Assembly (NCBI GenBank): GCA_963753795.1
Contig: CAVWDS010000006.1
Span: 98,866-130,865 of the forward strand
Length of the DNA: 32,000 bases
DNA from: an uncultured Acidobacteriota bacterium
GTDB lineage: Bacteria > Acidobacteriota > Terriglobia > UBA7540
Direction of reading: 5' to 3'
The first letter of the stretch is position 1. Every line of letters starts with the position of its first letter. Positions 15,194-31,780 of this stretch are shown here, in pieces. The notes under the pieces were generated by a model that was not told the DNA's origin, did no database searches, and saw nothing but the letters and a program-made list of their open reading frames with translations. Position numbers and translations under genes: made by a program.

Positions 15194-15256
15194 CTTCAGC
15201 GTTCAGCTATCAGCCGTCAGTTGTCTTTGCGCTCGCTGAGAGCTGACTGCTGACGG
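15194..15256. repeat. Heptamer array H1: NTCAGC x4 facing GCTGANN x3 (inverted pair)
   Basis: cttcagc gttcagc tatcagc cgtcagt, a 13-nt loop, then gctgaga gctgact gctgacg. It spans the stop codon (15210-15212) of the upstream gene and ends 9 nt from the xseB start codon. Confidence 0.7.
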
Positions 15257-17112
15257 CCCGCGTAGTTGCGGTGCGTTCCCCAAGGACTTGCGCCACATCG
15301 ACTGCCATGGCGTAGCGGCCGAAGGGCGCGGCGATTTGCACACCCTGAACCAAGTTACGGATTGAGAGCAGGGTCTCCTGAGCGATTCTAACACCTTCCG
15401 CCCGCGCTGCGTCTCCCGTATCCGCTTTTCTCATCCGATCCATGATGGCCTGTGGAACAGAGATTCCAGGCACTTCATTGTTCATGAATTCGGCGTTGCG
15501 GTAACTCGTGAGCGGGCAAATCCCTGCAACTACCGGAATACAGCCCGCCGCGGACTCTATTCGCTTCAAGAACCTCGCCAATTGCTCCACATCGAAAACC
15601 GGTGGGGTGACGGCGAAATTGGCGCCCGCTTTCAATTTGAGTTGGAAGCGGTGCAGTTCTTCCTCAGGGTTCACGGCGCAGGGATTCAACCCCACGCCGA
15701 TCAGGAATCCCGTTTGCTTGCTCAAGGGATTGCCCCCCACATCCAGCCCTTGGTTCAGATTGTTGAGGATGTTGACCAGCCCAATGGAATCAACCTCGAA
15801 GACGGCGGTTTCCTGGAGCGTAGAGAACTGGGCAGTGTCCCGAGTGATGGCGAGGATGTTCCGCAGGCCCAGCGCATGCGCACCCAGCGCGTCGGCTTGA
15901 ATGCTTAGCAGGTTACGATCGCGGGCGCTGTAGTGCAGCAAGACTTCGATGCCCACTTGCCGCTCGAGGAGGGCGGCGAGCGTGAGCGGGCTCATGCGGC
16001 CCATGACCCCCGTCCCGTCGGGAATGTTGATGGCGTCCACTCCCTTCGCCAGGAGGTACTGCGCGCCTTCCGCCTCTTTGGTGGCATCGCAGCCCTTGGG
16101 AGGAACAACCTCCGCCAGGATTGGAAACCTAGCGCGCGCCAGCTTTTCAGCCAGCCGCGAGCGCTTCTCGACTGGTATGGGTTCGAGCGTGCGCCCGGGG
16201 CGCTCCACGACCTCGATGGCCACGCGCGAGCGTTGCGGGCTCAGTGAACGGACGGCCGCTTTGATCGCCTTGATGTGCTCCGGCGTCGTCCCGCAGCAGC
16301 CCCCCACCAGCCGCGCTCCGCACTGAATGTAACGGCGCACGTAACTGGCCATGTACTCCGGCGAGCTAAGGTAGATATTCCGACCCTGAACCGTGCGGGG
16401 CATTCCCGCATTGGGTTGCGCGGAGAGCTTCCTGTCCGTCACTGCCGCCATAATCTCCAAAGCTTCCAGGATGGCCGCCGGACCTACGCTGCAATTGAGG
16501 CCGATGATGTCTGCGCCCCATTCGTCCAGTTTGCGGGCAAAGTCCTCGGGCAATGCCCCGATGGGCGTGCTGCCGTCATCCTGTACCGTCATCTGCACTA
16601 CCACAGGCAAAGAACAGACATCGCGGACGGCCAGCAGGGCTTGGTGGGCTTCGTTCGGGATCGCTCATGGTTTCGACCATGAGCAAATCTACGCCGCCCT
16701 CCGCCAGCGCTGCGATTTGCTCCCCAAACGCTTCCCTGGCTTCCTGGAGTGAGGTCGGCCCCAAAGGTTCCAGGCGGACTCCCAACGGTCCCACAGAGCC
16801 CGCCACATAGAGATCTTCTCCCGCCACTTCGCGAGCCAGGCGCGCGCCGGCCAGGTTGATTTCGCGAACCTTGGAGCCCTGATTGTATTTTTCCAGGCGC
16901 CGTCGCGTGGCCCCGAAGGTGTTGGTTTCAAGGATTTCCGCCCCGACCTTCACGTAGGCGAGGTGGACCTCCTTCACGAGTTGCGGCGAGCTCAAATTCA
17001 ACTCCTCGAAGCAGCGGCTTAGGGAGATGCCTTTCGAGTAGAGCATCGTCCCCATCGCTCCGTCGCAAACCATGGTCCGGTTTTCGATTTTCTCCAGAAA
17101 AGGTTCCCGCAT
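15210..17112 (-). pseudogene. Bifunctional homocysteine S-methyltransferase / 5,10-methylenetetrahydrofolate reductase (YitJ type), split by a 1-nt frameshift
   Basis: ORF 16576-17112 carries the N-terminal Hcy-MT half (VCDGAMGTML, ILETNTFGA, LLMVETMSD). ORF 15210-16610 carries the rest (GLNCSVGP, GGCCGTTPEHI) plus the MTHFR domain (AEVVPPKG, LHYSARDRN). Removing one C from the CCC run (plus-strand GGG at 16657-16659) reads through as MSDPNEAHQALLAVRDV. Confidence 0.85.
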
Positions 17113-17204: not shown

Positions 17205-17816
17205 GTGATTGAATCGATTTTCCAAACACTGACGGACTTCTTCGCCCGGTACGGCTACTGGGTAGTCTTCTTCGGCGTGATGCTGGAAAACGGCGGTCTG
17301 CCCTTGCCCGGTGAAACCGTTCTGCTGTTCGCAGGGTTTCTGGCTTACCAAGGCGAGATTCGACTCGTTTGGGCGATCGGGGTTGCAATTGCCGGGGCGA
17401 CGCTCGGCGACAGCCTCGGCTACACGCTGGGTCGTTACGGAGGGAACGCCTTCTTCGATCGCTACGTCAAGCGCTTCAAGTTCCTGGCGCGCCGGTTTGA
17501 GAATTCCAGGGCGCTCTTTCTGAAGCACGGTCACTGGGCCGTGTTCACCGGCCGCTTCATCACCGGGCTGCGGGTGTTCGCGGGGCCGCTGGCCGGGCTT
17601 TTCAAGATGCCGTATACGAGGTTTCTCCTCTTCAATTTCACGGGGGCGGTAGTTTGGGCCACGGCGATCGGTTGTGTGGGTTTTCTTTTCGGAGACAATT
17701 GGTACAACCTGGTTCACGTCGTCAAGGATATCCACCGCGTCACGCTGGGCCTGGTTGCCGTGCTGGCCCTGGTGGGATTGATCGTCTACTTGCGACGGCG
17801 TACAAAAGGCGGCTAG
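17205..17816 (+). CDS. DedA family membrane protein
   Basis: 203 aa with a GTG start. YGYWVVFFGVMLENGGLPLPGETVLLFAGFLA and GRFITGLRVFAGPLAG are the DedA/SNARE-associated signature regions. Confidence 0.85.
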   Translation: MIESIFQTLTDFFARYGYWVVFFGVMLENGGLPLPGETVLLFAGFLAYQGEIRLVWAIGVAIAGATLGDSLGYTLGRYGGNAFFDRYVKRFKFLARRFENSRALFLKHGHWAVFTGRFITGLRVFAGPLAGLFKMPYTRFLLFNFTGAVVWATAIGCVGFLFGDNWYNLVHVVKDIHRVTLGLVAVLALVGLIVYLRRRTKGG

Positions 17817-17837
17817 CTCGGATCTCTTGCCGCGAAT

Positions 17838-18242: not shown

Positions 18243-19418
18243 TCATTCCCGCGGAAGTCGAAAGTCGCCCTTTACTCTCTTCAGATCGTCTTTCGCGGCT
18301 TTGAAGCGGGGATTCATCTGAACCGCCGTCTCGAGCTCGGAAATAGCCTCCGCGCTTCGCCCCCGCTTTTCCAGGATCAGCCCCAGCACCCGGTGAGCAT
18401 GAGCCGCGTCCGGCTCTTCTCCCTCCGGTTCCTGTGTAAGGTATTTTCGCAAATAGGCTTCGCCTCGCTGGAGCTCGACACCTGATTCCAGCAGAGCGTC
18501 TGCCGCCTCAAAGTAAGGGGCAAGGTCGTCGGGGACGGCTTTTTCGGAAGCAGAGAGAACGGCTTCAAGTTCACTCCATCTCCGCTCAAGGGCGAGAACT
18601 TTCGCCAGGATTGAATAGCCCCTCGCCCGCGCGGGATCGAGCTCGATGGCTTCGCGCGCATGCTTCCCTGCCCCCTCGGTGTTCCTGTGAGAGGGCTGTG
18701 TGTAAAAGCTTGCGAGGGCCGTCTGCGCCTCGTAGTTCTTCGGATCAGCTTGGACGGCTTTGAGAAGACACTCTTCCACTTTGGCAAAGTCTTTTGCTTC
18801 TTTGGCCAGCTCAGCCTGCGCCAGGTATCCATGCACCGGGCTGAGTTGGACGAGTTCCTCAGCAATGGCGCGGGCCTTTCCCTTGTCACCGCCCATCATT
18901 CCCGGGGCCTGAAAGCTGTACTCCATCAAGGCCTCCAACGTATCCAGGTTCTTGGGGTCACGGGCGAGGGAAGCCTCCAACTCACCCTTAAACTTTCCCG
19001 CAAGACTCGCCGCGGCAAAAATGCTGGCTCTTTCCGCCATCTCCCCGTAAACTTCCGCAAGTTGGAAGTGATTGTTCGAGTTTGCGTCTTCGAGCGCCAC
19101 CGCCTGCTGGGCGGATTTCAGCGCGCCATCCAAATCGCCAAGAGCGAGTTTTGCGCGGGAGAGCAGGCAAGCCGCCTGCGCATCGCGCGGGTTGGCGGCG
19201 AGGCGCGGCTCCAGAATTGCCCGCGCCCGCTTCCAATGGCCGGCTTCTATCAACGCTTCGGCAGAGCCCAGGCCGGGAGCGGCGGCCTCCATGGAAGAAA
19301 GTGGAAAGCAGAAAGTAGCAAGCAGAAAAAAGAAACTGGAAACTCGAAAATGGAAACTCGCACCCTTCCCTTCTAGTTTCTGATTTCTCGTTTTTGGTTT
19401 CTGAGTTGCCAGTTTCAT
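18243..19418 (-). CDS. Tetratricopeptide-repeat protein, probably secreted
   Basis: Repeated A/L/Y-rich 34-aa helical pairs run throughout (e.g. AEVYGEMAERA, AQAELAKEAKDFAKVEECLLKAVQADP). The ATG at 19418 gives a basic and hydrophobic N-terminus (KPKTRNQK...FFFLLATFCFPLSS). An alternative ATG at 19292 would remove it. The track ORF start at 19472 is less likely. Confidence 0.75.
   Translation of the reverse strand: MKLATQKPKTRNQKLEGKGASFHFRVSSFFFLLATFCFPLSSMEAAAPGLGSAEALIEAGHWKRARAILEPRLAANPRDAQAACLLSRAKLALGDLDGALKSAQQAVALEDANSNNHFQLAEVYGEMAERASIFAAASLAGKFKGELEASLARDPKNLDTLEALMEYSFQAPGMMGGDKGKARAIAEELVQLSPVHGYLAQAELAKEAKDFAKVEECLLKAVQADPKNYEAQTALASFYTQPSHRNTEGAGKHAREAIELDPARARGYSILAKVLALERRWSELEAVLSASEKAVPDDLAPYFEAADALLESGVELQRGEAYLRKYLTQEPEGEEPDAAHAHRVLGLILEKRGRSAEAISELETAVQMNPRFKAAKDDLKRVKGDFRLPRE
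19291..19414. repeat. Heptamer array H2: AAANNNG x10 facing CNNNTTT x6 (inverted pair)
   Basis: Ten in-register units at 19291-19360, a 12-nt loop, and six complementary units at 19373-19414. It shares the exact 13-mer GAAACTCGAAAAT (19339-19351) with array H7. Confidence 0.8.
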
Positions 19419-19491: not shown

Positions 19492-21426
19492 TCATTTCCC
19501 CTTGAGCCAGCGCTCGCGAATCGCGGTCTGCTGGGGCGTGACGCCGGGCAGTTCCTGAATTGTGTAGGAACTCGGCGCCGGCGGGTCGAGAGTCAGATAG
19601 ATGATTTCCCGTCGGCCGTGGCGTTCGACCGTGAAGGGGACGCGTGCTCCCGGCGGATAGGCTCTCAGGCGTTGATCCAAATCCTCGGTGGCCAGAGGCT
19701 GGTCATCGACCGCAATCAGGAGGTCATCGCGGCCGAGCCCGGCGCGGTCGGCGGCCCCACCCGGCCGCACAGCGGCGACCTTGACACCGCGGTTGTCAGG
19801 GAGTGAAGCTATGCCGATACTAGGCGGGGAGCCTTCGGGAACACCGGTCCGCAGAGCCAATCCGGCCGCAGCGAGCACCGTTGCGCACGGCAGTGGGGCC
19901 GTCCCGCGCACGTAGCTGTCAAAGAAGGCGGTGAAGTCGCTCCCCGTCACCTCATTCACTGCTTCGAGGATGTCCTGCTCCTCGTAGCCCCGCCCCGGGC
20001 CGTAATAATTTGCTGGCGGTGCTTCGTAGAACTTGTGGTACAGCGACGAAAGGACATCCAGAAGGGATTTTGCGCCCTGTGTCCGGGCCTGAATCTCCAA
20101 GTCCAGGAGCATGCCGAGAAGCGCGCCCTTGTTGTAATAGGAGATGGTGGAATTGGCGAAGTTGGTCTCCTGCATTTGCGGAGCCCGGTCGTAGAACCAG
20201 GCGTGGAAGCTCGAGCTCTCGGCGGACATCAGCATCCGTCCCGGTGCGTCTTCCAGAGCACGAATCTCATCGGACAGGCGGCCGAGAAATTGCTGCCGCG
20301 TCCACAGGCCTGAGCGCAACAGGCTGAGATAACTGGCATAGGTGGTCACTCCCTCGGCAAGCCACAGGGAGGGCGTGTAAACTTCGCGCGTGTAATCGAA
20401 AGGTCCGAGTTCGGCCGGCCGCAGGCGCTTGACGTTCCAGAGATGAAAGAACTCGTGCGCCGCGTTCTCTAATGCCTCATCAAGGGTGCCGCTCAGGCTT
20501 CCTCGCAGGATGATCTGGGTGGAGTTCAGGTGCTCCATCCCGTCGCCCATCGAAATGTCGGGCGCGAAGTGGAAAATAAAAGTGTAATGCTCGAAATCCG
20601 GGGCGGGCATCAACGCCATTTCGGTGTGGACAATCTTCTGGAGGCCCTCGAGGAGCTTCGTCGTATCGGTGTTCTCGTCGTCATACGAGTGCACCGCGAC
20701 GCGAATGGTCTTGCCCCGCTCCTGGAAGCGGGCCAGCTTGGTTTCGGCGCAAACCTCGAGGGGAGTGTCAACCAAGCGGTCGTAATTAGCCACTTGAAAG
20801 GTCCGCCCGCTTGTGGAGTCGGATGAACCGCTGATCAACTGCCAGTCTTTCGGTGCGTCCACGGCCAGCGTGAGCGGATTGGGTTTGTGTCCCGCCACAT
20901 ACATGAAGATCGAGGGGCCATTCAAATTCGCGTGCGTGGGGTCAAACTGGGAGAAGGAACCGTTGAGGTCGTTGGCGAAAACCCGGTAGCGCACCTTGAC
21001 AACTCCACCTCCCTGGCGCAGGTCCACGCGCCAGGTTTGCTTGTCGAGGCTCCTCCAGGGCAGCGCCTGCCCTTGCCCGCCCCAGGCCGTGAATTCCTGC
21101 ACGTTCTTGGCGAAGTCGTAAATGGCGTAGCGGCCGGGCGACCAGGCCGGCATGACAAAGTCGAGGGAATCGCCCGAGACCTGGCGGGCGGTGATCTCGA
21201 CGTTCACAAGGTGCAGGTTGGGATGAGTCAGGGTGAGGCGATACTCCAGTTGCAGTGCCGAGGAAGCAGGTTCTTCTGCCGCCCGCAGCAGGCCAACCAC
21301 CGGGGCCAGCAGGAAGATGGTGAGTAGGGCCGCGCGGCGCAATCCGGGCTTACTCTCAGTTGCTCTCTTGGATGAGTTTAGTATCAGTGTTTTCTCCGAT
21401 GACGCCAGTCGGGTGGTTTCGGTCAC
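19492..21426 (-). CDS. M61 family metallopeptidase (glycyl aminopeptidase-like) with C-terminal PDZ domain
   Basis: HEFFHLWNVKRL zinc motif and a PDZ-like GVKVAAVRPGGAADRAGLGRDDLLIAVDDQPL. N-terminal signal-like RRAALLTIFLLAPVVGLLRAAEE. The start is non-ATG: GTG at 21426 or an internal TTG. Confidence 0.85.
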   Translation of the reverse strand: MTETTRLASSEKTLILNSSKRATESKPGLRRAALLTIFLLAPVVGLLRAAEEPASSALQLEYRLTLTHPNLHLVNVEITARQVSGDSLDFVMPAWSPGRYAIYDFAKNVQEFTAWGGQGQALPWRSLDKQTWRVDLRQGGGVVKVRYRVFANDLNGSFSQFDPTHANLNGPSIFMYVAGHKPNPLTLAVDAPKDWQLISGSSDSTSGRTFQVANYDRLVDTPLEVCAETKLARFQERGKTIRVAVHSYDDENTDTTKLLEGLQKIVHTEMALMPAPDFEHYTFIFHFAPDISMGDGMEHLNSTQIILRGSLSGTLDEALENAAHEFFHLWNVKRLRPAELGPFDYTREVYTPSLWLAEGVTTYASYLSLLRSGLWTRQQFLGRLSDEIRALEDAPGRMLMSAESSSFHAWFYDRAPQMQETNFANSTISYYNKGALLGMLLDLEIQARTQGAKSLLDVLSSLYHKFYEAPPANYYGPGRGYEEQDILEAVNEVTGSDFTAFFDSYVRGTAPLPCATVLAAAGLALRTGVPEGSPPSIGIASLPDNRGVKVAAVRPGGAADRAGLGRDDLLIAVDDQPLATEDLDQRLRAYPPGARVPFTVERHGRREIIYLTLDPPAPSSYTIQELPGVTPQQTAIRERWLKGK

Positions 21427-24313: not shown

Positions 24314-24426
24314 GTCTCTCGACTTCTCGACTCTCGACTCTCAACTGCACTACCTGTAAGATGGCACCTTTGGACTCTTTCTTGGGGGTTTGACCTTTGA
24401 CTTTCGACTTTCGACTGTTGACCGCA
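24314..24426. repeat. Heptamer array H3: GACTCTC units grading into GACTTTC/GACCTTT units, single register
   Basis: GAC-phased units at 24329 and 24336, then again at 24392, 24399, 24406, 24413 and 24420. The gap 24392-24336 = 56 = 8x7, so the register is kept through degenerate filler. The array runs into the first codons of dacB. Confidence 0.65.
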
Positions 24427-26004
24427 ATTCGAAAGCGGCTTAATCGACTCCTTGTCATTATCGTGCTCGCCCTTTTGAGCACGGCCTTGACCGCGCCGTT
24501 CCTCTCTGCTGCCAATCGACAATCGAAGCCGCACGCTTCTCCGGCGCTTAACGCTCGCCTTGACGCAATCCTTCGCTCGAGCGCTGCCGCACGCGGCTTT
24601 TGGGGCATCGAGGTGGCAGAGCTTCCCAGCGGAACAATCCTCTTCAGCCGTGACGCGCAACACCTTTTCCACCCCGCTTCAAACATGAAGTTGTTTACTA
24701 CAGCGGCGGGGTTCGAAAAGCTCGGACCGGATTTCGTCTTCCGCACCACGGTGGAAAGCGAGTCCGGACCGGATGCGCAGGGGCACGCGCAGAAACTTTA
24801 CCTGGTTGGGAAAGGAGACCCCAGTTTTTGTGACGACGTTTTTCCGCCGCTTCGGAATCCGGGTGAGGCCAAGAATCATCTTTGCCCGACTCTCCAAGAA
24901 CTGGCGGAGCAGATCAGGGCGCGTGGAGTGCTGGAAGTCTCCGGCCCTCTGGTAGCGGACGACAGTTATTTCCTTTGGGAACCGTACACCCACGGCTGGA
25001 CCGCTGAGGATCTGATATGGGGCTATGGGGCGGCCGTCTCAGCTCTGGCCTTGAATTCTAATGCTTTGCTGCTCCGAATCAAGCCGGCATTGAAGCTCGG
25101 CGATCCCGCCCAGGTTTGGCTTGAGCCCCTGGCGGACTATTACCAGCTCAACAACAGACTCGAAACCAGCGGAGCGGGAACCGAAGAGCGTTGGTCCGTA
25201 AAACGAGAGCTGGATTCCATGCGTCTGGACATTTGGGGGCAAATCCCCCTCGACGCCCGAGAGACTAGCGAACGGGTGGCCATCGCTCATCCGGCGCAGT
25301 TGGTCGGTGAACTTTTCCGCCAGGCGCTCGAGGGCGCCGGCGTTGTCGTCAAAGGCGGTGTCGAGGTGAATCATCTAACACCGCTGGAGGCAGCGACAGC
25401 CAGTCAAACTCCTCTCCCACTTTCTCCGCGCGTGGTCCTGGCCGAGCATGACTCCCAGCCGCTGCGGGAGATGGTGAAGGGGACCAACAAGGAAAGCCGG
25501 AACTTTTATGCGGAAATGTTTTTGCGCACTCTCGGTCGCGAGGTGAAGCATCGTGGCGGCCTCGAGGACGGCTTGGAGGTACTCAATGAATTCGCGCAGC
25601 AAATCGGCGCCGAGCCGGGCGAGACGGTGTTCGCCGATGGCTCGGGCCTCTCGCGAGATGATTTGGTGACACCAGACACACTCGTAAAGCTGTTGATCCA
25701 CATGGCGAGTGACCCGGCTTTCGAGGTATTCCTTAATACGCTGCCTGTGGCCGGCGTGGACGGGACATTGGTTGCCCGCTTCAAGGGGACACGTGCGGAA
25801 GGAAAAATCCACGCCAAGACGGGCACCCTCGAGCAGGTGAATGCCCTTTCCGGCTATATGGATCTGCCTTCAGGCAAGAGGCTTGTCTTCTCCATCATCG
25901 GAAATAGCCACCCCCTCAAGGAGCGGCAGGGCGCAGTTACCATCGACCAAATTGCCTTGGCCGTTTATGATTGGTACTCCCGGCACAAGAAAAGCAGGCA
26001 GTAG
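24397..26004 (+). CDS. dacB: D-alanyl-D-alanine carboxypeptidase/endopeptidase, PBP4 (peptidase S13)
   Basis: SxxK (PASNMKLFT), DGSGLSRDDLVTP and KTGTL motifs, with signal-like LLVIIVLALLSTALTAPFLSAA. There is no ATG near the 5' end; the candidate starts TTG 24397 and TTG 24418 both lie inside array H3. Confidence 0.88.
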   Translation: MTFDFRLLTAIRKRLNRLLVIIVLALLSTALTAPFLSAANRQSKPHASPALNARLDAILRSSAAARGFWGIEVAELPSGTILFSRDAQHLFHPASNMKLFTTAAGFEKLGPDFVFRTTVESESGPDAQGHAQKLYLVGKGDPSFCDDVFPPLRNPGEAKNHLCPTLQELAEQIRARGVLEVSGPLVADDSYFLWEPYTHGWTAEDLIWGYGAAVSALALNSNALLLRIKPALKLGDPAQVWLEPLADYYQLNNRLETSGAGTEERWSVKRELDSMRLDIWGQIPLDARETSERVAIAHPAQLVGELFRQALEGAGVVVKGGVEVNHLTPLEAATASQTPLPLSPRVVLAEHDSQPLREMVKGTNKESRNFYAEMFLRTLGREVKHRGGLEDGLEVLNEFAQQIGAEPGETVFADGSGLSRDDLVTPDTLVKLLIHMASDPAFEVFLNTLPVAGVDGTLVARFKGTRAEGKIHAKTGTLEQVNALSGYMDLPSGKRLVFSIIGNSHPLKERQGAVTIDQIALAVYDWYSRHKKSRQ

Positions 26005-26028
26005 GCAGAAAGCAGTAGGCAGTGGGTG
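25994..26028. repeat. Heptamer array H4: GNAGGCA x5
   Basis: gcaggca gtaggca gaaagca gtaggca gtgggtg. It contains the dacB stop codon (26002-26004). No inverted partner was seen. Confidence 0.45.
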
Positions 26029-26040: not shown

Positions 26041-26619
26041 ATGAAAGTCATAACAGTCTTCGGAAGTTCACTGCCCGGGGAGGCGAGCCGTGCTTACGCG
26101 GAAGCACGGCAACTGGGAAGACTGTTGGCAGAAGCCGGGTTCGCCATCTGCAATGGCGGATACAGGGGATTAATGGAAGCCTCAGCGCGAGGCGCTCGCG
26201 AGGCAGGCGGCCACACCATCGGCGTCACGTGCGAGGTCTGGCCTGGCAAGGCGAATCAGTGGATTGCAGATGAGGTACGCACAAAGTCGTTTTCCGAACG
26301 CCTCATGACGCTGCTGGAGCGCGGCGACGCTTACGTCGTTCTCCCGGGTGGAACCGGCACGCTGGCGGAATTGGCGCTGGCCTGGGAGATGATGAACAAG
26401 GCCAGCCTATCGAAGACGGTGGGCGGGAGCAAGCCCCTCCTGGTGATGTCGCCTTACTGGCAGCCGGTCATCGCTTGCCTGGAACAGGAAGGGCAGCTCA
26501 ACTCCACCCAGAAGGAATGGAAGTCGCCGGCGATGGAAATCGTCACCCTGGTGACCGGCCCCGAGCAGGTAGTCGAGTACTTGAAGAAGAGCCGCAAACG
26601 CGTGTCATTCCAAGGATAG
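26041..26619 (+). CDS. LOG family / TIGR00730-725-type Rossmann-fold nucleotide-binding protein
   Basis: ITVFGSS, NGGYRGLMEASARGAREAGGHTIGV and VVLPGGTGTLAELALAWE (PGGxGTxxE) motifs. ATG at 26041 is preferred over the upstream GTG at 26026. Confidence 0.8.
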   Translation: MKVITVFGSSLPGEASRAYAEARQLGRLLAEAGFAICNGGYRGLMEASARGAREAGGHTIGVTCEVWPGKANQWIADEVRTKSFSERLMTLLERGDAYVVLPGGTGTLAELALAWEMMNKASLSKTVGGSKPLLVMSPYWQPVIACLEQEGQLNSTQKEWKSPAMEIVTLVTGPEQVVEYLKKSRKRVSFQG

Positions 26620-26635: not shown

Positions 26636-26713
26636 GGGTCTTGCCCTCTCCCCCGGGGAGAGGGTGGACCGCGACGGCGCTTTCACCAGCCGGCGCGGGC
26701 CGGGTGAGGGGTC
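26636..26713 (+). repeat. ~80-bp dispersed repeat, copy 1 (CTCTCCCCCGGGGAGAGGGTGG...CGCTTTCACCAGCCGGCGCGGG..GGTGAGGGGTC)
   Basis: It aligns with 31798-31876 in the same orientation with a few mismatches and two 1-nt indels. It contains an 8-bp GGGAGAGG/CCTCTCCC stem. Intergenic. Confidence 0.7.
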
Positions 26714-26752
26714 AGTTCCACGGCGAGGAGGGAGAGGGTTCGGCTGAACACA

Positions 26753-27439
26753 ATGCTTGACAAAAACACAACCCCAGCCGTCGTGCCCATGAGCGCGCGC
26801 CTCTGGCACGCCGTACGGAAAGCCGCGCTATCAGTACTGTTCGCGAGCATCCTCATAATTCCCAAAGTCAGAGCCCTGCGCAGAAAGATTTGGGAATGGT
26901 CGGCGGTTCGAGTCCTGATGGCGTCGCTGGGGTGCTTGCTGGGCTGGCGATACAAGCACGCCAAGGGCGGAGTGGTGGATTTGGTTGTGGGTGTCGCGTT
27001 AATGGCTTTCGGCCTGCTGGTTCGCGCCAAGCCGCAAGCCAAGTCGGTGGACGCTCAGGCCCGCCAGCTCGAGGCACTCGTGGTTCTGAACGGCGGGGCG
27101 TTCATCCCGGCAGGAAAAGAACGGCCCTTAACCATGGCGCGCATTTTCGTGAATCCCGACCGGTTATTCGTGGTTGATGAACGCGAGCACACTTTGGAGG
27201 AGATTCCGCTGGTCCGGGTGCGCGAGCTGGCAGCGCAGTCCGTCAGCCGACGGATCCCCGTCTCAGACGAGCCTGAAGCAGAAGCACAAACCTGGGACCT
27301 CGAGATTACCTGGGAAGCAAAGGAGATGCGCACAGCCCGGTTCCGCTATGACGGCGTGTTTGCCGAGCATCTGGCGCGCGTCGCGGAAACCACGGTGCGA
27401 AATCTCTTGCGGAGAGAATTAACGGTCCTTAGGGAATAG
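26753..27439 (+). CDS. Hypothetical membrane protein (N-terminal TM segments plus a soluble C-terminal domain)
   Basis: 228 aa. Hydrophobic stretches: AALSVLFASILII, VRVLMASLGCLLGW, VVDLVVGVALMAFGLLV. I recognise no family motif. The C-terminal beta-rich region could be PH-like, which is speculative. The REP 14-mer sits in frame inside the CDS. Confidence 0.55.
   Translation: MLDKNTTPAVVPMSARLWHAVRKAALSVLFASILIIPKVRALRRKIWEWSAVRVLMASLGCLLGWRYKHAKGGVVDLVVGVALMAFGLLVRAKPQAKSVDAQARQLEALVVLNGGAFIPAGKERPLTMARIFVNPDRLFVVDEREHTLEEIPLVRVRELAAQSVSRRIPVSDEPEAEAQTWDLEITWEAKEMRTARFRYDGVFAEHLARVAETTVRNLLRRELTVLRE
27240..27253. repeat. REP-like 14-mer CCGTCAGCCGACGG inside a CDS (copy 5 of 5)
   Basis: Exact 14-mer, translated as QSVSRRIP in the 26753-27439 ORF. 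Confidence 0.7.
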
Positions 27440-27570
27440 GGAATAGGTAACCGGGAACAGGAGAAGGGCGAATAGGGAGTAGGGAATCGGGAACAGCGCG
27501 CAGGAGAAGAGCAGCCGTCGACACCTGTTCCCTATTCCCTGTTCCCTGTTCCCTGCCCCCTGTTCCCTAC
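27430..27570. repeat. Heptamer array H5: TAGGGAA-type x12 facing CCTGTTC x6, filling a convergent intergenic gap
   Basis: Left arm 27430-27514, loop 27515-27523, right arm 27524-27570. The TAG stop of the plus-strand gene (27437-27439) is part of a unit. The minus-strand rSAM stop lies at 27572-27574. It could act as a bidirectional terminator hairpin. Confidence 0.8.
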
Positions 27571-27571
27571 G

Positions 27572-28633
27572 TCAGCGGATGGTGTCGCCGGCCAGTCCCC
27601 AGAAGTCCTTCGCGTAGTAGGACGAAAGCACATTCCCAAACAGATGGCAGATGCCGTGGCAGTCGGGAATGTCCCCGTAGAGTTTACGGCCTCGCGCGAA
27701 GACCTTCTTGAACGATCCTTCGCGCAACAGGTTCCCACCGATCTTTTTGAGTGGCTCGCAGGGATAAAACACATCGCCGTTGGGGTAGACGCGCGGAAAC
27801 ATGGTCGGGAAGCACTGGAAATCGCCGAACTCGAGCAGGGTGCGAATGAGCTTGGGCGTGCCATTGATGGGCTGAGCGCGCTCGCGCCGGCGCTGCACGA
27901 TCTTCTCAACCAGGGCTTGGTAGCGCGGGTTCTGCCGCAGGCGAAGGTTGGGCAACTTCTCGTTCAGCGCCGTCTGCGTGGCGAAGACAAATCCCTGCTC
28001 GCCGCAGAAGTCCATGATGCTCTCGATATCAGCGATATTCCATTCTTCGATGACCGTGCTGATGGTGATGTCCGTTGGCTTCGAGAAGCGCGACTTGGCC
28101 AGTTGCAGGTTCTCGAGCACCCTGGCGAGGACAGCGGGCTTGGACATGGGCTTGGTCGAATCCGCCTCGAGCGAATCCAGGCTGACGATGAGGCTGTGCA
28201 AGGAGTCAAACAACCCCTGCCGTTTATGCAGGAGCGTGCCATTGGTGATGAGCAGCACCGAGCGAAACTTCAAATCATGCCGCGCCGCGCGGGCCAGTTC
28301 CTCGATATCGTCGCGCAAGGTCGGCTCCCCGCCCGTGAAGAGGATCGAATCAGTTCCCTTGCGCACGATTCGAAGCAACTTGACGGTCTCGGCGGTGGGC
28401 AGTTCCTGGCTGAAGACGTCCGGCTCCTTTTGGGTGCAGTACGTGCAGGCCAGATTGCATTTATGGGTGACGTAAAGTATCGCCGCATAGGGCGCCACAA
28501 CGTTGGTGCGTCGAATCTCACGCCGATAAAGGTTCTGGAAATAATGTTTGAAGTTCTTCAGGACAAAGGGATAGTGTCGCAGCAATCCCTTCAGGAGGGC
28601 CAGCCCCTTTTGTTCTGAACGCCCCTCGCCCAT
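27572..28633 (-). CDS. Radical SAM protein of unknown function with a Cys-rich C-terminal region
   Basis: 353 aa. HKCNLACTYC (CxxxCxxC), TGGEPTL and ITNG are present. The C-terminus carries extra cysteines (FQCFP, YPCEPL, DCHGICHLFG), suggesting an auxiliary-cluster (SPASM/twitch-like) region. No Shine-Dalgarno sequence; the start overlaps the stop of an upstream ORF (TAATG). Confidence 0.85.
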   Translation of the reverse strand: MGEGRSEQKGLALLKGLLRHYPFVLKNFKHYFQNLYRREIRRTNVVAPYAAILYVTHKCNLACTYCTQKEPDVFSQELPTAETVKLLRIVRKGTDSILFTGGEPTLRDDIEELARAARHDLKFRSVLLITNGTLLHKRQGLFDSLHSLIVSLDSLEADSTKPMSKPAVLARVLENLQLAKSRFSKPTDITISTVIEEWNIADIESIMDFCGEQGFVFATQTALNEKLPNLRLRQNPRYQALVEKIVQRRRERAQPINGTPKLIRTLLEFGDFQCFPTMFPRVYPNGDVFYPCEPLKKIGGNLLREGSFKKVFARGRKLYGDIPDCHGICHLFGNVLSSYYAKDFWGLAGDTIR

Positions 28634-28872
28634 TAACCAGAAGCGTATACGAAGACGCGGAGTCCCGGCAAGGCTTTTGAGGCCAATGAGGTGGAAGTGG
28701 GGCCTAAATGCTTCCTATCAGTGCTCCCCGGGGGGCATCGGCAGCGAAAGTTCGAATCACGGGTGGCGGCGACATTGCTTTCTATGTCGCCGACCCCTGG
28801 GTTCCACCCCACACCCATGGTCCGATAGCCCCGCCCGTTGTGCGCAGACATACAAGACAATGTCTGCGCCAC
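28633..28872 (-). CDS. Doubtful 79-codon ORF translationally coupled to the radical SAM gene
   Basis: GTG start at 28872, with internal ATGs at 28851 and 28818. The stop overlaps the rSAM ATG (TAATG). No recognisable family, a weak RBS, and two strong palindromes inside it. It could equally be untranslated leader. Confidence 0.2.
   Translation of the reverse strand: MAQTLSCMSAHNGRGYRTMGVGWNPGVGDIESNVAATRDSNFRCRCPPGSTDRKHLGPTSTSLASKALPGLRVFVYASG
28767..28792. promoter_or_regulatory. Palindrome A: CGGCGACAT-N8-ATGTCGCCG
   Basis: Perfect 9-bp arms with an 8-nt spacer. It shares the GACAT-N8-ATGTC core with palindrome B, 76 bp away, in the divergent region between the rSAM and PD40 genes. Confidence 0.4.
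28842..28869. promoter_or_regulatory. Palindrome B: GCGCAGACAT-N8-ATGTCTGCGC
   Basis: Perfect 10-bp arms with an 8-nt spacer and the same GACAT-N8-ATGTC core as palindrome A. No flanking T-tract on either strand. Confidence 0.4.
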
Positions 28873-29000
28873 CCTCGCTACCCCGCACCAGCTGCTCGTG
28901 TCACTCGGGAGATCGCAGGGTCGAAAATACGATTTTCATCAAGTTTCGCGGGCCGAAGGCACTAAGGGACAGGCCCCAAACAACTTGGGTCAGCGCCAGC

Positions 29001-29036
29001 CATTGCCATTTTCTATTTTCCATTTTCCAGTTTCCA
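29001..29036. repeat. Heptamer array H6: ATTTTCC-type x5 (reverse complement of the GAAA family)
   Basis: cattgcc attttct attttcc attttcc agtttcc. TTTCTATTTTCC (29010-29021) is the exact reverse complement of GGAAAATAGAAA in array H7 (31655-31666). Confidence 0.6.
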
Positions 29037-29069: not shown

Positions 29070-29102
29070 ATGGAAATTCACGAAGATGTGGTGATGAAAT
29101 GA
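29070..29102 (+). CDS. Possible 10-codon leader ORF (MEIHEDVVMK) overlapping the downstream start
   Basis: GGAGA lies 6 nt upstream of the ATG at 29070. Its TGA overlaps the ATG of the PD40 gene (ATGA at 29099-29102). The main gene has no Shine-Dalgarno sequence of its own and no alternative in-frame start after the stop at 29048-29050. Confidence 0.25.
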   Translation: MEIHEDVVMK

Positions 29103-31663
29103 AGGGCGCCGCTGAAACCGCTCTGTTGCTGGTTACATTCTCTTGCATGGCTTTCGCGCAGAAGGCGGACACCTCGCAGCCGCCGCCCATCCTCAGCGAT
29201 GCGGGGCGATATCCAGCCGCGCGCCACGGCGGGCCGTACATGTGGAATTACTATATCCCGCCGGCGCCGGGAACCACCCCCTGGGCGCCTTGCTGGTCGC
29301 CGGACGGCAAGCGGATCGCGGTGGCGATGCAAGGTTCGATTTGGATTGTGGACCCCGAGACAGGCAAAGCCGCCGAGATCACGAAAACCAGCGGCTACGC
29401 CTCTTTGCCAACCTGGTCGCCTGACGGAAAGTGGATCGTCTACACCTCCGACTACGACCACCGGCGCATTCAACTGGAAGCAGTAGAGCTATCCAGCGGC
29501 GATTTCCACGCGCTCACGAGCGACGACGCGATCTACCTGGACCCGGCCTTTTCACCGGACGGCACGCAACTCACCTACGTATCGACCCTGCCTAACGGTT
29601 ATTTCAATATCTACGTGCGCGCCATACACGATGGCCGGTGGAGCGGCGAGCCCGTTGCGGTTACCGCGGACGCCGCCTATCCGCGCGACCGACTCTATTT
29701 TGGCGAATGGGATATGCACACCCAGCCCGCCTGGACGCCGGACGGCAAGGAGCTGGTCTTCATCTGGAATCGCGACGTGCCTCTCGGCTCGGGCGATCTT
29801 TGGCGGGCGCCGGCCATAGCTGGCGGCATGCGCCATGCGACGCGCATCCTGCACGAACAGACGCTCTACCGCACGCGCCCGCACGTCTCGCCCGATGGGA
29901 ATCGCATTGTGTACGCTTCCACAGGCGGGGCGGCCGACCAGTACAACAATCTCTACCTTCTCCCGATCGGGGGCGGTGATCCGTACAAAATCACCATCGG
30001 AGCCTACGACCACTTTCATCCCCGCTGGTCTCCCGACGGCGAGTGGATCGCCTTCATCTCGAATGAAGCCGGGCTGCCGCAGTTATGCCTGCTGGAGACC
30101 TGGGGCGGCGCCGTCAAGAAGGTTCGCATCACGGCGCGCGCCTGGAAGCGCCCCATGGGCAGGCTTCACGCGCGCGTCATCGATGCGGCGACAGGGCTGC
30201 CGACCTCGGCGCGCATTCAGGGGACTGGGGCAGACGGCCGAGCTTATGCGCCGGTTGACACCTATGCGCGGCTGAGCAGCTCCGGACCGCCTTACTTCCA
30301 TACAACCGGTGAGTTCACCGCCGAATTTCCACCCGGGCGGATGACCCTCGAAGCGATAAAAGGATTCGAGTACCAGCCTGATAAACAGCAATTCGAGATC
30401 GTGCCCGGCCGCACCACGTCCGCCACTTTCACTCTGCGCCGCATCGCGAATCTCCCCGCCCAAGGCTGGTACAGCGGCTCGACGCACGTCCACATGAACT
30501 ACGGCGGCAACCTGCATGACACGCCGCAGAACCTGGCCATGATGGCCAGCGCGGAAGACCTGCACATGGTGAATGCCATGGCAGCCAATAAGGACAACCG
30601 CGTGCTCGACTGGCATTATTTCCGCCCCGGCAGGCAGGAGTACCCGCTGAAGAAAGCCGTTCCCGGCATCAGGATCATGTTCGGTGAAGAGTACCGTCCC
30701 GCGTTCTGGGGACACACCTTCCTGCTCGGCATGCGCGACCACCTCTACTCGCCCTTCGCCGAGAACTATGAAGGGACTGCCATTGCCAGCCTCTATCCGA
30801 CGAACACAGATGTCTTCCGCGAGGTGAAGGCGCAGGGCGGAGTCACCGGCTACGTGCATCCGTTCGGCGATGCGGACCCGGTTGTGTCGGGGTACGGAGC
30901 CAAGGGATTTCCGGTGGACGCAGCCCTGGGCACGCTCGATGCGCTGGAGTGGTCCGGCGCCGTGCGGGCGGAAATGGGTGTGTGGCATCGCCTCCTCAAC
31001 AACGACATCGCGCTCGTGCCGGTGGGCGGCGAGGATTCGGAAAACGACCTCCATGCGCTCAGAACGCTGGGCGCTATTCGAACTTACGTGCACCTCGATG
31101 GCCCGCTCAGCGGCGATGCATGGCTCGAGGCCCTGCGCAAGGGCCGGACGTTCCTAAGCACTGCCCCGCTGCTCGACTTGAAGATTGATGGGCAGTTGCC
31201 CGGCAGCACCTTGCGGCTTCCGGCGGGCGGAGGTACGGTTCTCATTGAAGCGAGCTTGAAGTCGGTTGTCCCGGTGACGAAACTCGTGCTGTACCACCGG
31301 CGCGGGGTGTTGCGCGAGATTCCCGTCAACCCGGACGGCAAGTCGGCCCACTTTCGCGAGCAGGTCCGGCTGCCCGAGAGCGACTGGATTTCGCTCGAGG
31401 CCGAAGGGCCGCCTGATTCGCGGTTCGATTCGGCCTTCGCTCTGGCGATAACCAATGCCGTGCGCGTCTATGTCGGAGACGGAAAGATCCGCGACCGCGC
31501 TTCGGCGGAATACTATGTCCGCTGGATCGATAAGCTCCGCCCCCAGGTCGAGCAGTGGCCGTGGTGGAACTCGGAGGCCGAGAAGAAGCATGTGCTGGCG
31601 CAGCTCGAGGAAGCGCAGCGGGTCTACCGGCAGTTGGCGGACGAGGCGGAAAGTGGAAAATAG
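29099..31663 (+). CDS. Secreted PD40 (TolB-like) beta-propeller fused to a CehA/McbA- or PHP-like metallohydrolase domain
   Basis: Signal-like N-terminus (ALLLVTFSCMAFAQ). Six PD40 repeats (WSPDGKRIAV, WSPDGKWIVYTS, FSPDGTQLTYVS, WTPDGKELVFI, VSPDGNRIVYAS, WSPDGEWIAFIS). The C half has an HxH metal motif (GSTHVHMNYGG) and later His/Asp/Glu residues. The C-domain family assignment is from memory of similarly annotated proteins. Confidence 0.75.
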   Translation: MKGAAETALLLVTFSCMAFAQKADTSQPPPILSDAGRYPAARHGGPYMWNYYIPPAPGTTPWAPCWSPDGKRIAVAMQGSIWIVDPETGKAAEITKTSGYASLPTWSPDGKWIVYTSDYDHRRIQLEAVELSSGDFHALTSDDAIYLDPAFSPDGTQLTYVSTLPNGYFNIYVRAIHDGRWSGEPVAVTADAAYPRDRLYFGEWDMHTQPAWTPDGKELVFIWNRDVPLGSGDLWRAPAIAGGMRHATRILHEQTLYRTRPHVSPDGNRIVYASTGGAADQYNNLYLLPIGGGDPYKITIGAYDHFHPRWSPDGEWIAFISNEAGLPQLCLLETWGGAVKKVRITARAWKRPMGRLHARVIDAATGLPTSARIQGTGADGRAYAPVDTYARLSSSGPPYFHTTGEFTAEFPPGRMTLEAIKGFEYQPDKQQFEIVPGRTTSATFTLRRIANLPAQGWYSGSTHVHMNYGGNLHDTPQNLAMMASAEDLHMVNAMAANKDNRVLDWHYFRPGRQEYPLKKAVPGIRIMFGEEYRPAFWGHTFLLGMRDHLYSPFAENYEGTAIASLYPTNTDVFREVKAQGGVTGYVHPFGDADPVVSGYGAKGFPVDAALGTLDALEWSGAVRAEMGVWHRLLNNDIALVPVGGEDSENDLHALRTLGAIRTYVHLDGPLSGDAWLEALRKGRTFLSTAPLLDLKIDGQLPGSTLRLPAGGGTVLIEASLKSVVPVTKLVLYHRRGVLREIPVNPDGKSAHFREQVRLPESDWISLEAEGPPDSRFDSAFALAITNAVRVYVGDGKIRDRASAEYYVRWIDKLRPQVEQWPWWNSEAEKKHVLAQLEEAQRVYRQLADEAESGK

Positions 31664-31780
31664 AAACTGGAAAATGCAAAACCCGAAATCCGACATTCGT
31701 AAGCCGAAACTCGACAAGCGAAATCCGAAACTCGAAAATCGAATTGCGAAACCCGAAATCGGTAACTAGAAAATTGAAAC
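31648..31780. repeat. Heptamer array H7: NNGAAAN x19 in a single unbroken register
   Basis: ggaaagt ggaaaat agaaact ggaaaat gcaaaac ccgaaat ccgacat tcgtaag ccgaaac tcgacaa gcgaaat ccgaaac tcgaaaa tcgaatt gcgaaac ccgaaat cggtaac tagaaaa ttgaaac. The stop codon of the upstream gene (31661-31663) lies inside unit 2/3. Confidence 0.85.

Follow-up and report, generated by a model that had tools for sequence, protein, structure and literature searches.

Heptanucleotide tandem-repeat arrays at gene ends in an uncultured Terriglobia bacterium

Heptanucleotide repeats in described systems

The STRR arrays of heterocystous cyanobacteria are built from the named units CCCCAGT, TTGGTCA and CAACAGT. A general excess of heptanucleotide repeats in bacteria, together with the proposal that they arise by polymerase slippage, goes back to Mrazek 2007 (as cited in PMC4679880 and PMC4692102). 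In Xanthomonas, (GGGANTN)n arrays sit at the same sites and are yet variable, and some form inverted pairs (Rehm et al. 2015, PMC4692102). Intergenic heptamers near gene ends are also represented by the TAACTGA arrays of Beggiatoaceae and cyanobacteria (MacGregor 2015, PMC4679880) and by the mostly paired sets of Geobacter metallireducens (Aklujkar 2009, PMC2700814). The most informative case functionally is that of Haemophilus influenzae hmw1A/hmw2A, where the phase-variable repeat (ATCTTTC)n acts through an RNA hairpin in the transcribed 5'-UTR that is cut by RNase III (Rapun-Araiz et al. 2025, PMC12721329); this is a functional account of the sort that a first-pass annotation of the DNA studied here had believed to be lacking.

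The arrays described below are a repeat of this known kind (STRR, Xanthomonas GGGAATC, Beggiatoa TAACTGA, Haemophilus hmw) in a new host, and the literature searched contained no report of heptamer arrays in Acidobacteria. The window, as the whole analysed stretch of 32,000 nucleotides is called here, belongs to an uncultured Terriglobia (Acidobacteriota) bacterium of soil or peat with about 60% GC, and not to a cyanobacterium. With the repeats of the Mrazek survey and the STRR of Calothrix/Anabaena, the arrays share tandem 7-nt units in excess over other periods, a mostly intergenic location, several unit families per genome and a variable copy number. Their earlier assignment to an STRR-like class was sound in that the heptamers stand tandem and head to tail, but the host, the units and the many inverted pairs differ. 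A strictly cyanobacterial STRR is ruled out, with a Terriglobia host and the units TCAGCNN, GAAAnnn, GACTYTC, GNAGGCA and YAGGGAA, at least five unrelated families within 17 kb.

A closer comparison is with Xanthomonas (GGGANTN)n and Nostoc GGGGA(T/C)T (PMC4692102), which likewise combine fixed and free positions, include some inverted pairs and recur at the same intergenic sites in relatives with another length and sequence. The (GGGAAYA)n unit of locus 5 approaches Xanthomonas (GGGAATC)n and also matches a G-quadruplex motif; here, in contrast, G-rich units make up one of at least five families, and nested two-family hairpins and the capture of stop codons occur for which the text consulted in PMC4692102 notes no Xanthomonas counterpart. 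As at hmw, an array of heptamers beside a gene contributes one side of a long, imperfect hairpin in the RNA (predicted here), and unit number varies naturally. The right arm, however, is a G-rich tract in hmw and an inverted array here, and hmw is a single, experimentally tested virulence locus in a pathogen, whereas the present arrays lie mostly at the 3' ends of housekeeping genes and occur at about 2-3 per 10 kb, or more than 1000 per genome if that density is uniform.

The TAACTGA arrays have one fixed unit in 2-6 copies just upstream of start codons (PMC4679880), in contrast to the many drifting families, longer arrays and stop-codon bias seen here; a CTGA core is nevertheless common to many of the present units. 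REP/BIME/REPIN elements share with these arrays an intergenic position at gene 3' ends and convergent junctions, and significant hairpins are predicted for loci 1 and 5 of the window; but a REP is a single 20-40 nt palindrome, scattered through the genome in near-identical copies and linked to a RAYT transposase, while the arms here are variable tandem heptamers. In the limited sample available the families differ by locus and the loop at a radical SAM gene junction is unique, which is not the dispersed-copy pattern of REP/BIME/REPIN. A MITE identity was likewise rejected, the array ends being ragged and varying by whole units; the only element that has terminal inverted repeats, with CTAG on its flanks, is an unrelated insert within an array of the relative L001.

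The period-7 signal and its seven loci

The first-pass annotation had claimed seven loci of period 7, and Tandem Repeats Finder called a period of 7 (or 14/21/35) at all seven, with 4-12 copies each. The units as first described in 7-nt steps agree with a phased read-out (Table 1). None is in the first 15 kb of the window, which has about eight spacers; all seven belong to its second half. In a sliding test that scored self-matches of at least 75% at lag k within 28 nt, the window gave eight segments at lag 7 and two at lag 14, with lags 4-6, 8-13 and 15 empty; dinucleotide-preserving shuffles (n=200) gave a lag-7 mean of 0.0 and a maximum of 0. The same test on 82 Terriglobia loci (1.47 Mb) returned 59 segments at lag 7 against 0-1 at lags 4, 5, 10, 11 and 13, and on metagenome loci (0.56 Mb) it returned 129 at lag 7, 13 at lag 10 and 4 at lag 8. 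Across about 2 Mb of related Terriglobia DNA, tandem periods other than multiples of 3 were almost all 7.

Chance periodicity or an assembly artefact has a negligible probability as the source of this signal. Repeats may mislead assemblers, and a short-read contig from an independent assembly, L086, terminates within array 5b, but no positive support for an artefact was found. L086 matches the window at 100% over 27526-28941 and is identical across the array, and arrays of like kind are present on dozens of metagenome contigs from other samples and assemblies. Not a single lag-7 segment arose in any of the shuffles, and both readings are ruled out.

Table 1. Heptamer arrays of the window, with their units, arrangement and neighbouring gene features
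Array	Coordinates	Units	Arrangement	Position relative to genes
1a	15191..15225	five: AGCCTTC AGCGTTC AGCTATC AGCCGTC AGTTGTC; core TCAGC		edge 6 nt from xseB start codon (15185, minus strand); encloses stop codon of upstream MTHFR-like ORF (15210-15212, minus strand)
1b	15235..15256	GCTGANN x3	inverted vs 1a	upstream ORF reads through arm
2a	19293..19360	~10, GAAA/AAAG core (AAAGTGG AAAGCAG ... AAACTCG); 14-nt higher-order period		adjoins TPR gene start codon (19290-19292, minus strand)
2b	19371..19414	nnnTTTC x ~6	inverted vs 2a	
3a	24316..24346	CTCGACT x4.3, one unit 8 nt long		in divergent spacer, penicillin amidase (minus strand) / S13 peptidase (plus strand)
3b	24389..24426	TTYGACY x5	same orientation as 3a	spans candidate TTG starts of S13 peptidase (24397 or 24418)
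4	25994..26028	GNAGGCA x5	single	encloses S13 peptidase stop codon (26002-26004); most of spacer ahead of LOG-family gene (ATG at 26041)
5a	27430..27493	(YAGGGAA)n, ~9, with phase slips		encloses stop codon (27437-27439) of unknown gene 26753-27439
5b	27524..27570	(CCTGTTC/CCTATTC) x6.4	inverted vs 5a	edge 1 nt from radical SAM stop codon (27572-27574, minus strand)
6	29001..29036	ATTTTCC x5; GAAAnnn family on other strand	single	63 nt upstream of PD40-repeat gene start (29099)
7	31648..31780	19, GAAA core; 14-, 21-, 35-nt higher-order periods; +1 phase shift after unit 5	single	encloses PD40 gene stop codon (31661-31663)

Loci 1, 2 and 5 consist of an array and its inverted copy. At locus 3 the two arrays run in the same direction, and loci 4, 6 and 7 have one array each. 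The complementary unit pairs had been listed at the outset, but had not been recognised as inverted arrays with the potential to fold into hairpins. Loci 2, 6 and 7 belong to one unit family, GAAAnnn; loci 6 and 7 have a 14-mer in common on opposite strands, and the 13-mer GAAACTCGAAAAT is present at both 19339 and 31727, as had been pointed out for exact words common to different loci. The register is less perfect than was first thought. Locus 7 had been described as free of indels, yet its GAAA core moves by one position past unit 5, and phase slips are also present in the left arm of locus 5 and in array 3a. The GAC phase said to be kept across the filler of locus 3 does hold numerically, with 49 nt (7x7) from the last unit of the first array (AAC, 24343) to the first GAC of the second (24392), but chance alone would give this one time in seven. 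The filler itself shows no periodicity at lag 7, and this phase-keeping is a coincidence. No tRNA genes were found in the window, and no Rfam 15 family matched at its gathering score; at the E-value threshold the matches were confined to locus 5 and were chance hits to long-hairpin miRNA models.

One alternative reading has the arrays act at the level of DNA, either as binding sites of a global regulator or nucleoid protein or as alternative structures such as G-quadruplexes. Heptanucleotide pairs in Geobacter are annotated as putative global-regulator sites (PMC2700814), and the CTGA core recurs across genomes: 15 of 52 locus-unit combinations have a CTGA/TCAG core where 4.0 would be expected, in a post hoc count on combinations that are partly non-independent. 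At locus 5 both arms match the quadruplex consensus (at least four G3 tracts, loops of 1-7 nt) at 27466-27491 (+) and 27544-27567 (-), two of the three predicted motifs in the window, and their unit resembles the Xanthomonas (GGGAATC)n that PMC4692102 reports as quadruplex-forming. The other six loci have no such motif, however, and the G-rich family is one only. Since the window holds at least five unit families and families are replaced at orthologous sites, a single sequence-specific binder is insufficient, and the arrays gather at stop codons and not in promoter regions. An explanation at the level of DNA binding or DNA structure is therefore highly improbable.

Gene ends, hairpins and turnover among relatives

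Placement was assessed with 46 arrays from unbiased genome loci. Only eight lay inside genes, where 31.3 were expected, which bears out the earlier view that placement is non-random with respect to gene boundaries, and 17 were at most 30 nt from a stop (3.1 expected). Among the non-interior arrays, 12 contained a stop codon (3.9 expected), and start codons showed no excess (4 versus 4.0 expected). Stop triplets are not enriched in the array units themselves (33 versus 29.4 expected, p ~0.15). The statement that each array reaches the start or stop of a coding sequence held for six window loci, of which four enclose a stop codon and two adjoin a start, but not for locus 6, 63 nt from its ATG. 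The flanking genes encode housekeeping enzymes. In a consensus scan for promoters, one weak match coincided with an array (array 1), and counts were at or below the shuffle expectation. The arrays of the window are not intrinsic (Rho-independent) terminators by the scan used, which looked for a short G+C-rich stem-loop ahead of a T run: the window has 13 terminator-like sites against 19.1 expected from shuffles, and none of the 13 coincides with an array.

For about 20 of 59 arrays, an inverted counterpart lies no more than 200 nt away. The arms of locus 1 fold in the minus-strand transcript with a predicted -32.5 kcal/mol (z -3.5), and 5a and 5b form one predicted hairpin of -76.2 kcal/mol (z -6.1; z -5.0 on the other strand). 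Locus 2 gives a long imperfect predicted hairpin that is no stabler than those of shuffles (z -0.7), and no hairpin was predicted at loci 3, 4, 6 and 7. Because four of the seven loci are without a hairpin, no single function can cover them all. The arms are not complementary unit by unit but fold through slipped registers. Paired arrays likely act as 3'-end or intercistronic RNA hairpins, with putative roles as transcript ends, stability elements or RNase III sites, and for the arrays at large any terminator, RNase III or regulatory role would be of the same putative standing.

At the convergent junction beside the radical SAM gene, 36 distinct natural variants of 67-564 nt were recovered from a clade of at least 90% identity. 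Of the 32 that were folded, 26 had z < -3 (median -4.65). The shortest variant, that of L121, is a 67-nt hairpin, and all 36 keep at least 67 nt of array; such retention may point to selection over neutral tolerance. Within the outer arms there is a second, inner hairpin, whose loop is conserved. The stop of the gene comes in two allelic forms, CGC-TGA-(2-4 nt)-array and CGG-TAG-GGAAC, between which a 5-nt deletion turns the array's own TAG into the stop codon. Relatives below 90% identity carry other palindromic repeats at this junction instead.

In another reading the arrays are selected, tunable RNA elements, forming 5'-UTR, intercistronic or 3'-UTR hairpins that are processed by RNase III or other factors and whose unit number sets expression; RNA processing might even be required for unit-number change, as in hmw. 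The hmw heptamer is an experimental precedent (PMC12721329), and the sense strand upstream of the TPR gene, (nnCTTTC)n, resembles its unit. Arrays 1b, 2a and 3b adjoin start codons in the transcribed sense, and the foldback at the radical SAM junction was kept in those 26 variants, with none shorter than 67 nt, despite full turnover of sequence and length. This reading is nonetheless rather unlikely. Most arrays are at 3' ends and, among non-interior arrays, start codons are met no more often than expected, there is no compensatory matching between hairpin arms, loci 2, 4, 6 and 7 lack significant structure, and housekeeping neighbours have no obvious need for contingency switching.

In relatives, arrays stand at the same junctions with a different unit count or unit sequence. 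A comparison of unit numbers between orthologous arrays had been proposed in the first-pass annotation, and it revealed indels of exactly 7 or 14 nt. At locus 1 the window and L006 differ by exactly one 7-nt unit with the rest alignable, L107 and L108 are 100% identical except for a 14-nt indel, L120 and L139 differ by 14 nt, and L107 and L135 by 7, 7 and 7. It is because orthologous arrays change in such steps that the register is kept while the sequence drifts. Of the two causes put forward earlier, a process or selection acting on the period, the generating process stands, as the unit indels and the 14-, 21- and 35-nt periods show; selection on the period is not needed for register conservation. 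Whole families change as well: the hairpin unit at the MTHFR/xseB junction is TCAGCNN in the window and L006, GTCCGTT in L001-L004 and GAAGNNN in L010, and it is absent from L014. Such outright replacement at one junction is as compatible with re-seeding, or with transfer from array to array, as with drift.

A further reading is that the inverted pairs are MITE- or REPIN-like mobile elements with heptamer arms, inserted at gene ends by a transposase. The same unit families do recur at several loci and in several genomes: GAAAnnn is present at loci 2, 6 and 7 and, in L001 and L006, ahead of the penicillin amidase gene. Two (AGTACTG)n hairpins that resemble each other lie 3 kb apart in L077, and the nested inner hairpin of the radical SAM junction could be seen in the same light. 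Small dispersed repeats in cyanobacteria are reportedly associated with heptamer arrays (Elhai et al., in 2008, are said to have made the connection), which would lend this reading some support. The arrays, however, have no conserved termini or target-site duplications at their ragged ends, arm lengths vary by single units, and single arrays outnumber pairs. The conserved inner loop had no copy at the other loci examined, a limited sample, and the sole clear insertion (L001 5604-5878, bounded by 20-nt terminal inverted repeats and flanked by CTAG) is of another kind and went into an array. Transposition as the origin of the pairs is accordingly improbable.

Origin of the arrays and their significance

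The explanation preferred here, with a probability of roughly 0.6, is that the arrays are STRR-type heptanucleotide simple-sequence repeats that are generated in place by slippage, are tolerated at gene ends and yield hairpins. Whole 7-nt units or blocks of several units are gained and lost in place, by slipped-strand mispairing or unequal recombination, and point substitutions blur the unit sequence while unit gain and loss hold the register. As 7 is not a multiple of 3, arrays would persist only outside gene interiors. They accumulate in short spacers, chiefly at 3' ends, and the loss of spacer DNA would often leave an array to supply the stop codon of a gene. Around 40% of arrays have an inverted partner from their own unit family. 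In these cases the transcript, or the DNA when single-stranded, could fold into a long imperfect hairpin, one that would still fold after any unit indel.

By itself, slippage accounts neither for the dominance of 7 over 5, 8, 10 or 11 nor for the recurrence of a few unit families (among them GCTGANN, AGTACYG and GAAAnnn) in genomes far apart. A period-specific mechanism, possibly one that depends on transcription or RNA processing in the manner of hmw and RNase III, could build and maintain heptamer hairpins, more than 1000 per genome at the present density, as evolvable rheostats of transcript ends and expression, in what would amount to a genome-wide contingency system of a free-living soil bacterium. 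This is a speculative and improbable idea; if it were true, the CTGA-core units common to Beggiatoa, cyanobacteria and Geobacter would suggest that one sequence-specific factor is shared.

Arrays of this kind have practical effects, in that they break up short-read assemblies and move called gene ends, lengthening or shortening ORFs. In many bacteria, surveys from the earliest onwards have ranked heptanucleotide repeats first in abundance among long tandem repeats, and this lineage is a dense natural experiment on the dominance of 7 and on array function. At a single junction, dozens of environmental variants display whole-unit indels, unit-family replacement, nested hairpins and stop-codon capture, and with such dense variation the question can be addressed in metagenomes and metatranscriptomes from peat that are already public.

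A period of seven at seven loci

Period 7 or one of its multiples (14, 21, 35) was called by Tandem Repeats Finder at all seven array loci (loci 1-7, window 15194-31780). A sliding self-match test, in which a segment was counted where identity at lag k reached at least 75% across 28 nt, found eight segments at lag 7 and two at lag 14 in the window; lags 4-6, 8-13 and 15 yielded no segment. Chance periodicity is excluded, as not one lag-7 segment arose in 200 dinucleotide-preserving shuffles of the window (mean 0.0, maximum 0). An assembly artefact was likewise ruled out: L086, a short-read contig from an independent assembly, matches window 27526-28941 at every base, and comparable arrays occur on many metagenome contigs of other samples. 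The arrays reported in the first-pass annotation are real and period-specific; their unit sequences match the read-out in 7-nt steps, and positions 19339 and 31727 do have the exact word GAAACTCGAAAAT in common. GAAAnnn forms one family across loci 2, 6 and 7, and a 14-mer is common to loci 6 and 7 on opposite strands. L086 breaks within array 5b, the second array of locus 5, so such arrays probably fragment short-read assemblies of these genomes.

The register is less strict than had been described. Locus 7, thought to be free of indels, is not, because its phase moves by +1 past the fifth unit, and slips also occur in the left arm of locus 5 and in array 3a. At locus 3, the GAC phase said to persist across filler does keep its spacing (AAC at 24343 to GAC at 24392, 49 nt or 7x7), but such spacing would arise by chance one time in seven, and the filler itself shows no lag-7 signal.

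Genes, arrays and repeats in the window (gene identities are Pfam assignments where so marked)
Feature	Position	Strand	Basis or remark
Hopanoid block	9335-14924
Squalene-hopene cyclase	10458-12689		hopanoid block
DUF3463 radical SAM	12686-13783		hopanoid block
Phosphorylase-family gene	13912-14628		hopanoid block
Palindromic repeat (TGTCATTCCGAGCG.AGCGAGGAATCT)	14796-14830; 23242-23276		spacer; in frame in penicillin amidase
xseB	14925-15185	-	Pfam
S-methyltransferase/MTHFR gene	15210-17112	-	Pfam; overlapping ORFs 15210-16610 and 16576-17112
VTT-domain gene	17205-17816	+	domain taken from the 203-aa ortholog on L001, not from a scan of the window ORF
TPR gene	start codon ends 19292	-	Pfam
M61 peptidase	19492-21426	-	Pfam
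61-nt direct repeat	21458-21518; 21543-21603		84% identity, 85 nt apart
Penicillin amidase	21514-24069	-	Pfam
Half-palindrome of the ~90-nt element	24243-24273		upstream of penicillin amidase
S13 peptidase	about 24397-26004	+	Pfam
LOG-family gene	26041-26619	+	Pfam
Dispersed ~90-nt element (CTCTCCC..GGGAGAGGGTGG..CGCTTTCACCAG..GGTGAGGGGTC)	26643-26733; 31797-31883		second copy beside array 7
Gene without assigned identity	26753-27439	+
Array 5a	27430-27493
Array 5b	27524-27570
Radical SAM gene	27572-28633	-	Pfam
PD40-repeat gene	29099-31663	+	Pfam

The window has a GC content of about 60%. Its penicillin amidase is 84% identical to a homologue in an uncultured Terriglobia MAG, SPRUCE 281, and the 79 matches that follow are nearly all from Acidobacteriota; judged by these protein matches, the host is therefore an acidobacterium and not a cyanobacterium. 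The S-methyltransferase/MTHFR gene, split into two ORFs here, is a single 619-aa gene in L001, a contig of a relative, and the split is due to a frameshift or else to an error in sequencing; the window ORF crosses array 1b and ends in array 1a, with a C-terminus unlike that of L001. The hopanoid block is missing at this position in five relatives (L006, L010, L014, L003 and L005), where the homologue of window 9334 downward comes immediately after xseB. This arrangement points to an insertion in the lineage of the window, possibly at the site of an array. A GCTGANN heptamer hairpin lies near that xseB junction in L006 (20198-20288) and L001 (10276-10340).

Placement at gene boundaries and predicted hairpins

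That every array touches a CDS start or stop holds for six of the seven loci, locus 6 lying 63 nt upstream of its gene. The stop codon is inside the array at four loci (15210-15212, 26002-26004, 27437-27439 and 31661-31663), and start codons are adjoined by loci 1, 2 and 3, the first of which also contains a stop codon. The spacers are co-directional at loci 1, 2 and 4, divergent at loci 3 and 6, and convergent at locus 5. Non-random placement was also seen in related loci, with genes placed by a simple codon-usage gene caller. Among 46 arrays from unbiased genome loci, eight were interior to genes against 31.3 expected at random (minimum 22 in 500 trials), 17 lay within 30 nt of a stop codon and 10 within 30 nt of a start codon (3.1 expected in each case). 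When only the 45 arrays outside gene interiors were considered, window included, a stop codon fell inside the array 12 times, where 3.9 were expected and none of 300 trials exceeded 8, a signal that comes in part from geometry, since an ORF entering an array with a stop triplet in its units terminates within three units; start codons were not in excess (4 against 4.0). The arrays are thus kept out of gene interiors and concentrated at 3' ends.

Other repeats lie in and around the penicillin amidase gene. The 61-nt direct repeat copies its 3' end into the spacer preceding the M61 peptidase gene, and one palindromic repeat is located in its excised spacer peptide. In L008 (9042-9124) and L013 (10733-10815), this peptide instead holds, in frame, a heptamer hairpin, (GATTGYC)n/(GRCAATC)n, which reads ..DCRLSIVDCRLIQSKIGNRQ.. 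in translation, directly ahead of the catalytic SNNW. Repeats of the intergenic type seem to be tolerated in this linker.

Loci 1, 2 and 5 each consist of an array followed by a reverse-complement array, and because of this inversion the transcribed strand is predicted to form one long imperfect hairpin. The predicted energy is -32.5 kcal/mol at locus 1 (z, relative to shuffled sequences, -3.5) and -76.2 kcal/mol at locus 5 (z -6.1; other strand -5.0); the prediction for locus 2 is hairpin-shaped with a stability not above that of shuffles (z -0.7). The two arrays of locus 3 have the same orientation; loci 4, 6 and 7 consist of one array each, for which folding gave no significant structure. 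The arms are not complementary unit by unit and the predicted folds use slipped registers; a tandem-repeat stem keeps folding whatever whole-unit indel occurs. Inverted pairs may form hairpins in RNA or single-stranded DNA, which could end or stabilise transcripts, or expose them to RNase III. Both arms of locus 5, (GGGAAYA)n, match the G-quadruplex consensus and hold two of the window's three motifs of this kind. No Rfam family was matched, and in a consensus scan of the window no canonical terminator or promoter pattern coincided with an array, apart from one weak promoter-like match over array 1.

Change by whole units at shared junctions

In relatives whose genes are 85-88% identical in nucleotide sequence, the same junctions are occupied by arrays too, though the arrays themselves are unlike. 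At locus 1, L006 equals the window plus exactly one 7-nt unit and is alignable elsewhere, an instance of the unit-number polymorphism that was to be looked for at orthologous spacers. The same junction holds a (GTCCGTT)n hairpin with a central insert of about 70 nt on contigs whose xseB protein is identical to that of the window, a degenerate (GAAGNNN)n hairpin in the more distant L010, and no hairpin in L014. GACTYTC arrays lie upstream of penicillin amidase in the window; in L001 and L006 a GAAAnnn hairpin occurs there. A single sequence-specific DNA-binding protein cannot lie behind all the arrays, given at least five unrelated unit families in 17 kb and the replacement of the unit family at one site.

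A population-scale view was obtained for the convergent spacer 3' of the radical SAM gene, which holds locus 5, from 80 metagenome loci retrieved via the radical SAM protein. The clade at ≥90% protein identity has 36 distinct junction variants of 67-564 nt, all filled with periodic arrays, a universal occupancy that may reflect selection. The variants typically come with outer arms (YAGGGAA)n and (TTCCCTR)n, and in many cases with added inner arms (TRAAGGY)n/(ACCTTTA)n flanking a conserved loop. In a few (L101, L112, L114, L104 and L118) decamer (CGCAGATNAA)n hairpins take the place of these, and L104 and L118 contain them as multiplied blocks of about 180 nt. Of the variants in this clade, 32 were short enough to fold, and 26 of these gave z < -3 (median -4.65), as did three of nine junctions in the group below 90% identity. 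Most of the indels that separate the closest variants are 7 or 14 nt long: L107 and L108 differ by a single 14-nt indel and are otherwise 100% identical, L120 and L139 differ by 14 nt, and L107 and L135 by gaps of 7, 7 and 7 and one of 13 nt. Two stop alleles exist for the radical SAM gene: the first reads CGC-TGA, then 2-4 nt and the array, and the second reads CGG-TAG-GGAAC, in which a 5-nt deletion turned the TAG of the first array unit into the stop. The convergent neighbour likewise terminates within an array unit (...CTT AGG GAA TAG). Two further tandem copies of the radical SAM gene's last bases (GATACCATCCGCCGAA), then (GGGAAYA)n arrays, occupy the 524-nt junction of L127, which suggests unequal recombination between arrays, and in L092 a long, telomere-repeat-like (TAGGGAT)n array faces (AACCCCT)n.

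The arrays, then, change by whole units. The proposal that either the generating process or selection acts on the period is upheld as to the process. No selection on the period itself need be invoked: whole-unit indels and point substitution suffice for the register to outlast sequence drift. Multi-unit duplications account for the higher-order periods of 14, 21 and 35 nt, and spacer loss may let arrays reach and replace stop codons. The case for a mobile-element origin is weak, as the arrays have neither conserved termini nor target-site duplications, their arm lengths differ by single units, and the conserved loop of the junction hairpin was not found at the other loci compared.

In L001 (5604-5878), a GAAACTA array that is uninterrupted in L006 is broken by what looks like an inserted MITE, 275 nt long. 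It has terminal inverted repeats of 20 nt (TGTCCTGAGTCAGAAGTTCG) and CTAG on both sides, and the GGGAGAGGG element is present in it as one copy. The ~90-nt CTCTCCC element, with at least two occurrences in the window, is also found, at 92% identity, at a non-syntenic position in L006 (13708-13799).

Distribution and known heptamer repeats

The lag-7 signal extends to relatives. In 82 Terriglobia loci (1.47 Mb), picked via a protein and not via repeats, 59 lag-7 segments were found against 0-1 at each of lags 4, 5, 10, 11 and 13; lag 8 gave seven, mainly from two octamer-using genomes, and multiples of three gave a few, probably coding repeats. The metagenome loci (0.56 Mb) gave 129 segments at lag 7, 13 at lag 10 and four at lag 8. 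Octamer arrays (GAAGCTNC-like) of like architecture were seen in L048 (2527-2862 and 14426-14463) and L054. The trait is patchy: arrays are dense in the closest relatives of the window (about 2-5 per 10 kb), many other genomes have none at the threshold used, and scattered lineages have them again. Some unit families recur in distant genomes. CTGA/TCAG is the most frequent 4-mer among array units. Across the window, L001 and genome loci L006-L085 it was present in 15 of 52 locus-unit combinations, where shuffles that preserve composition lead one to expect 4.0, in a post hoc count of partly non-independent combinations. This core is also found in the TAACTGA units of Beggiatoa and cyanobacteria and the MTYCTGA units of Geobacter.

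Heptanucleotides are the most abundant class of long simple-sequence repeats in many prokaryotes, with polymerase slippage proposed, according to Mrazek 2007 as related in PMC4679880. For Xanthomonas and Nostoc, Rehm et al. 2015 describe heterogeneous (GGGANTN)n arrays, which occupy the same intergenic sites across related genomes, vary in length and sequence, and include some inverted pairs (PMC4692102). TAACTGA arrays immediately upstream of start codons were described by MacGregor 2015 (PMC4679880), and heptanucleotide sets in pairs in Geobacter by Aklujkar 2009 (PMC2700814). The nearest experimental model for the hairpins is the (ATCTTTC)n repeat of Haemophilus influenzae hmw, which forms one arm of a 5'-UTR hairpin that is cut by RNase III, with both expression and unit-number change dependent on the hairpin (PMC12721329). 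No report of such repeats in Acidobacteria was found in the literature searched. To the known heptamer repeats are now added the variation of one junction at population scale, hairpins nested from two unit families, stop-codon capture, and a bias to stop rather than start codons. Unsurprising in kind, the arrays are real and dense, and are good material for the old heptamer question.
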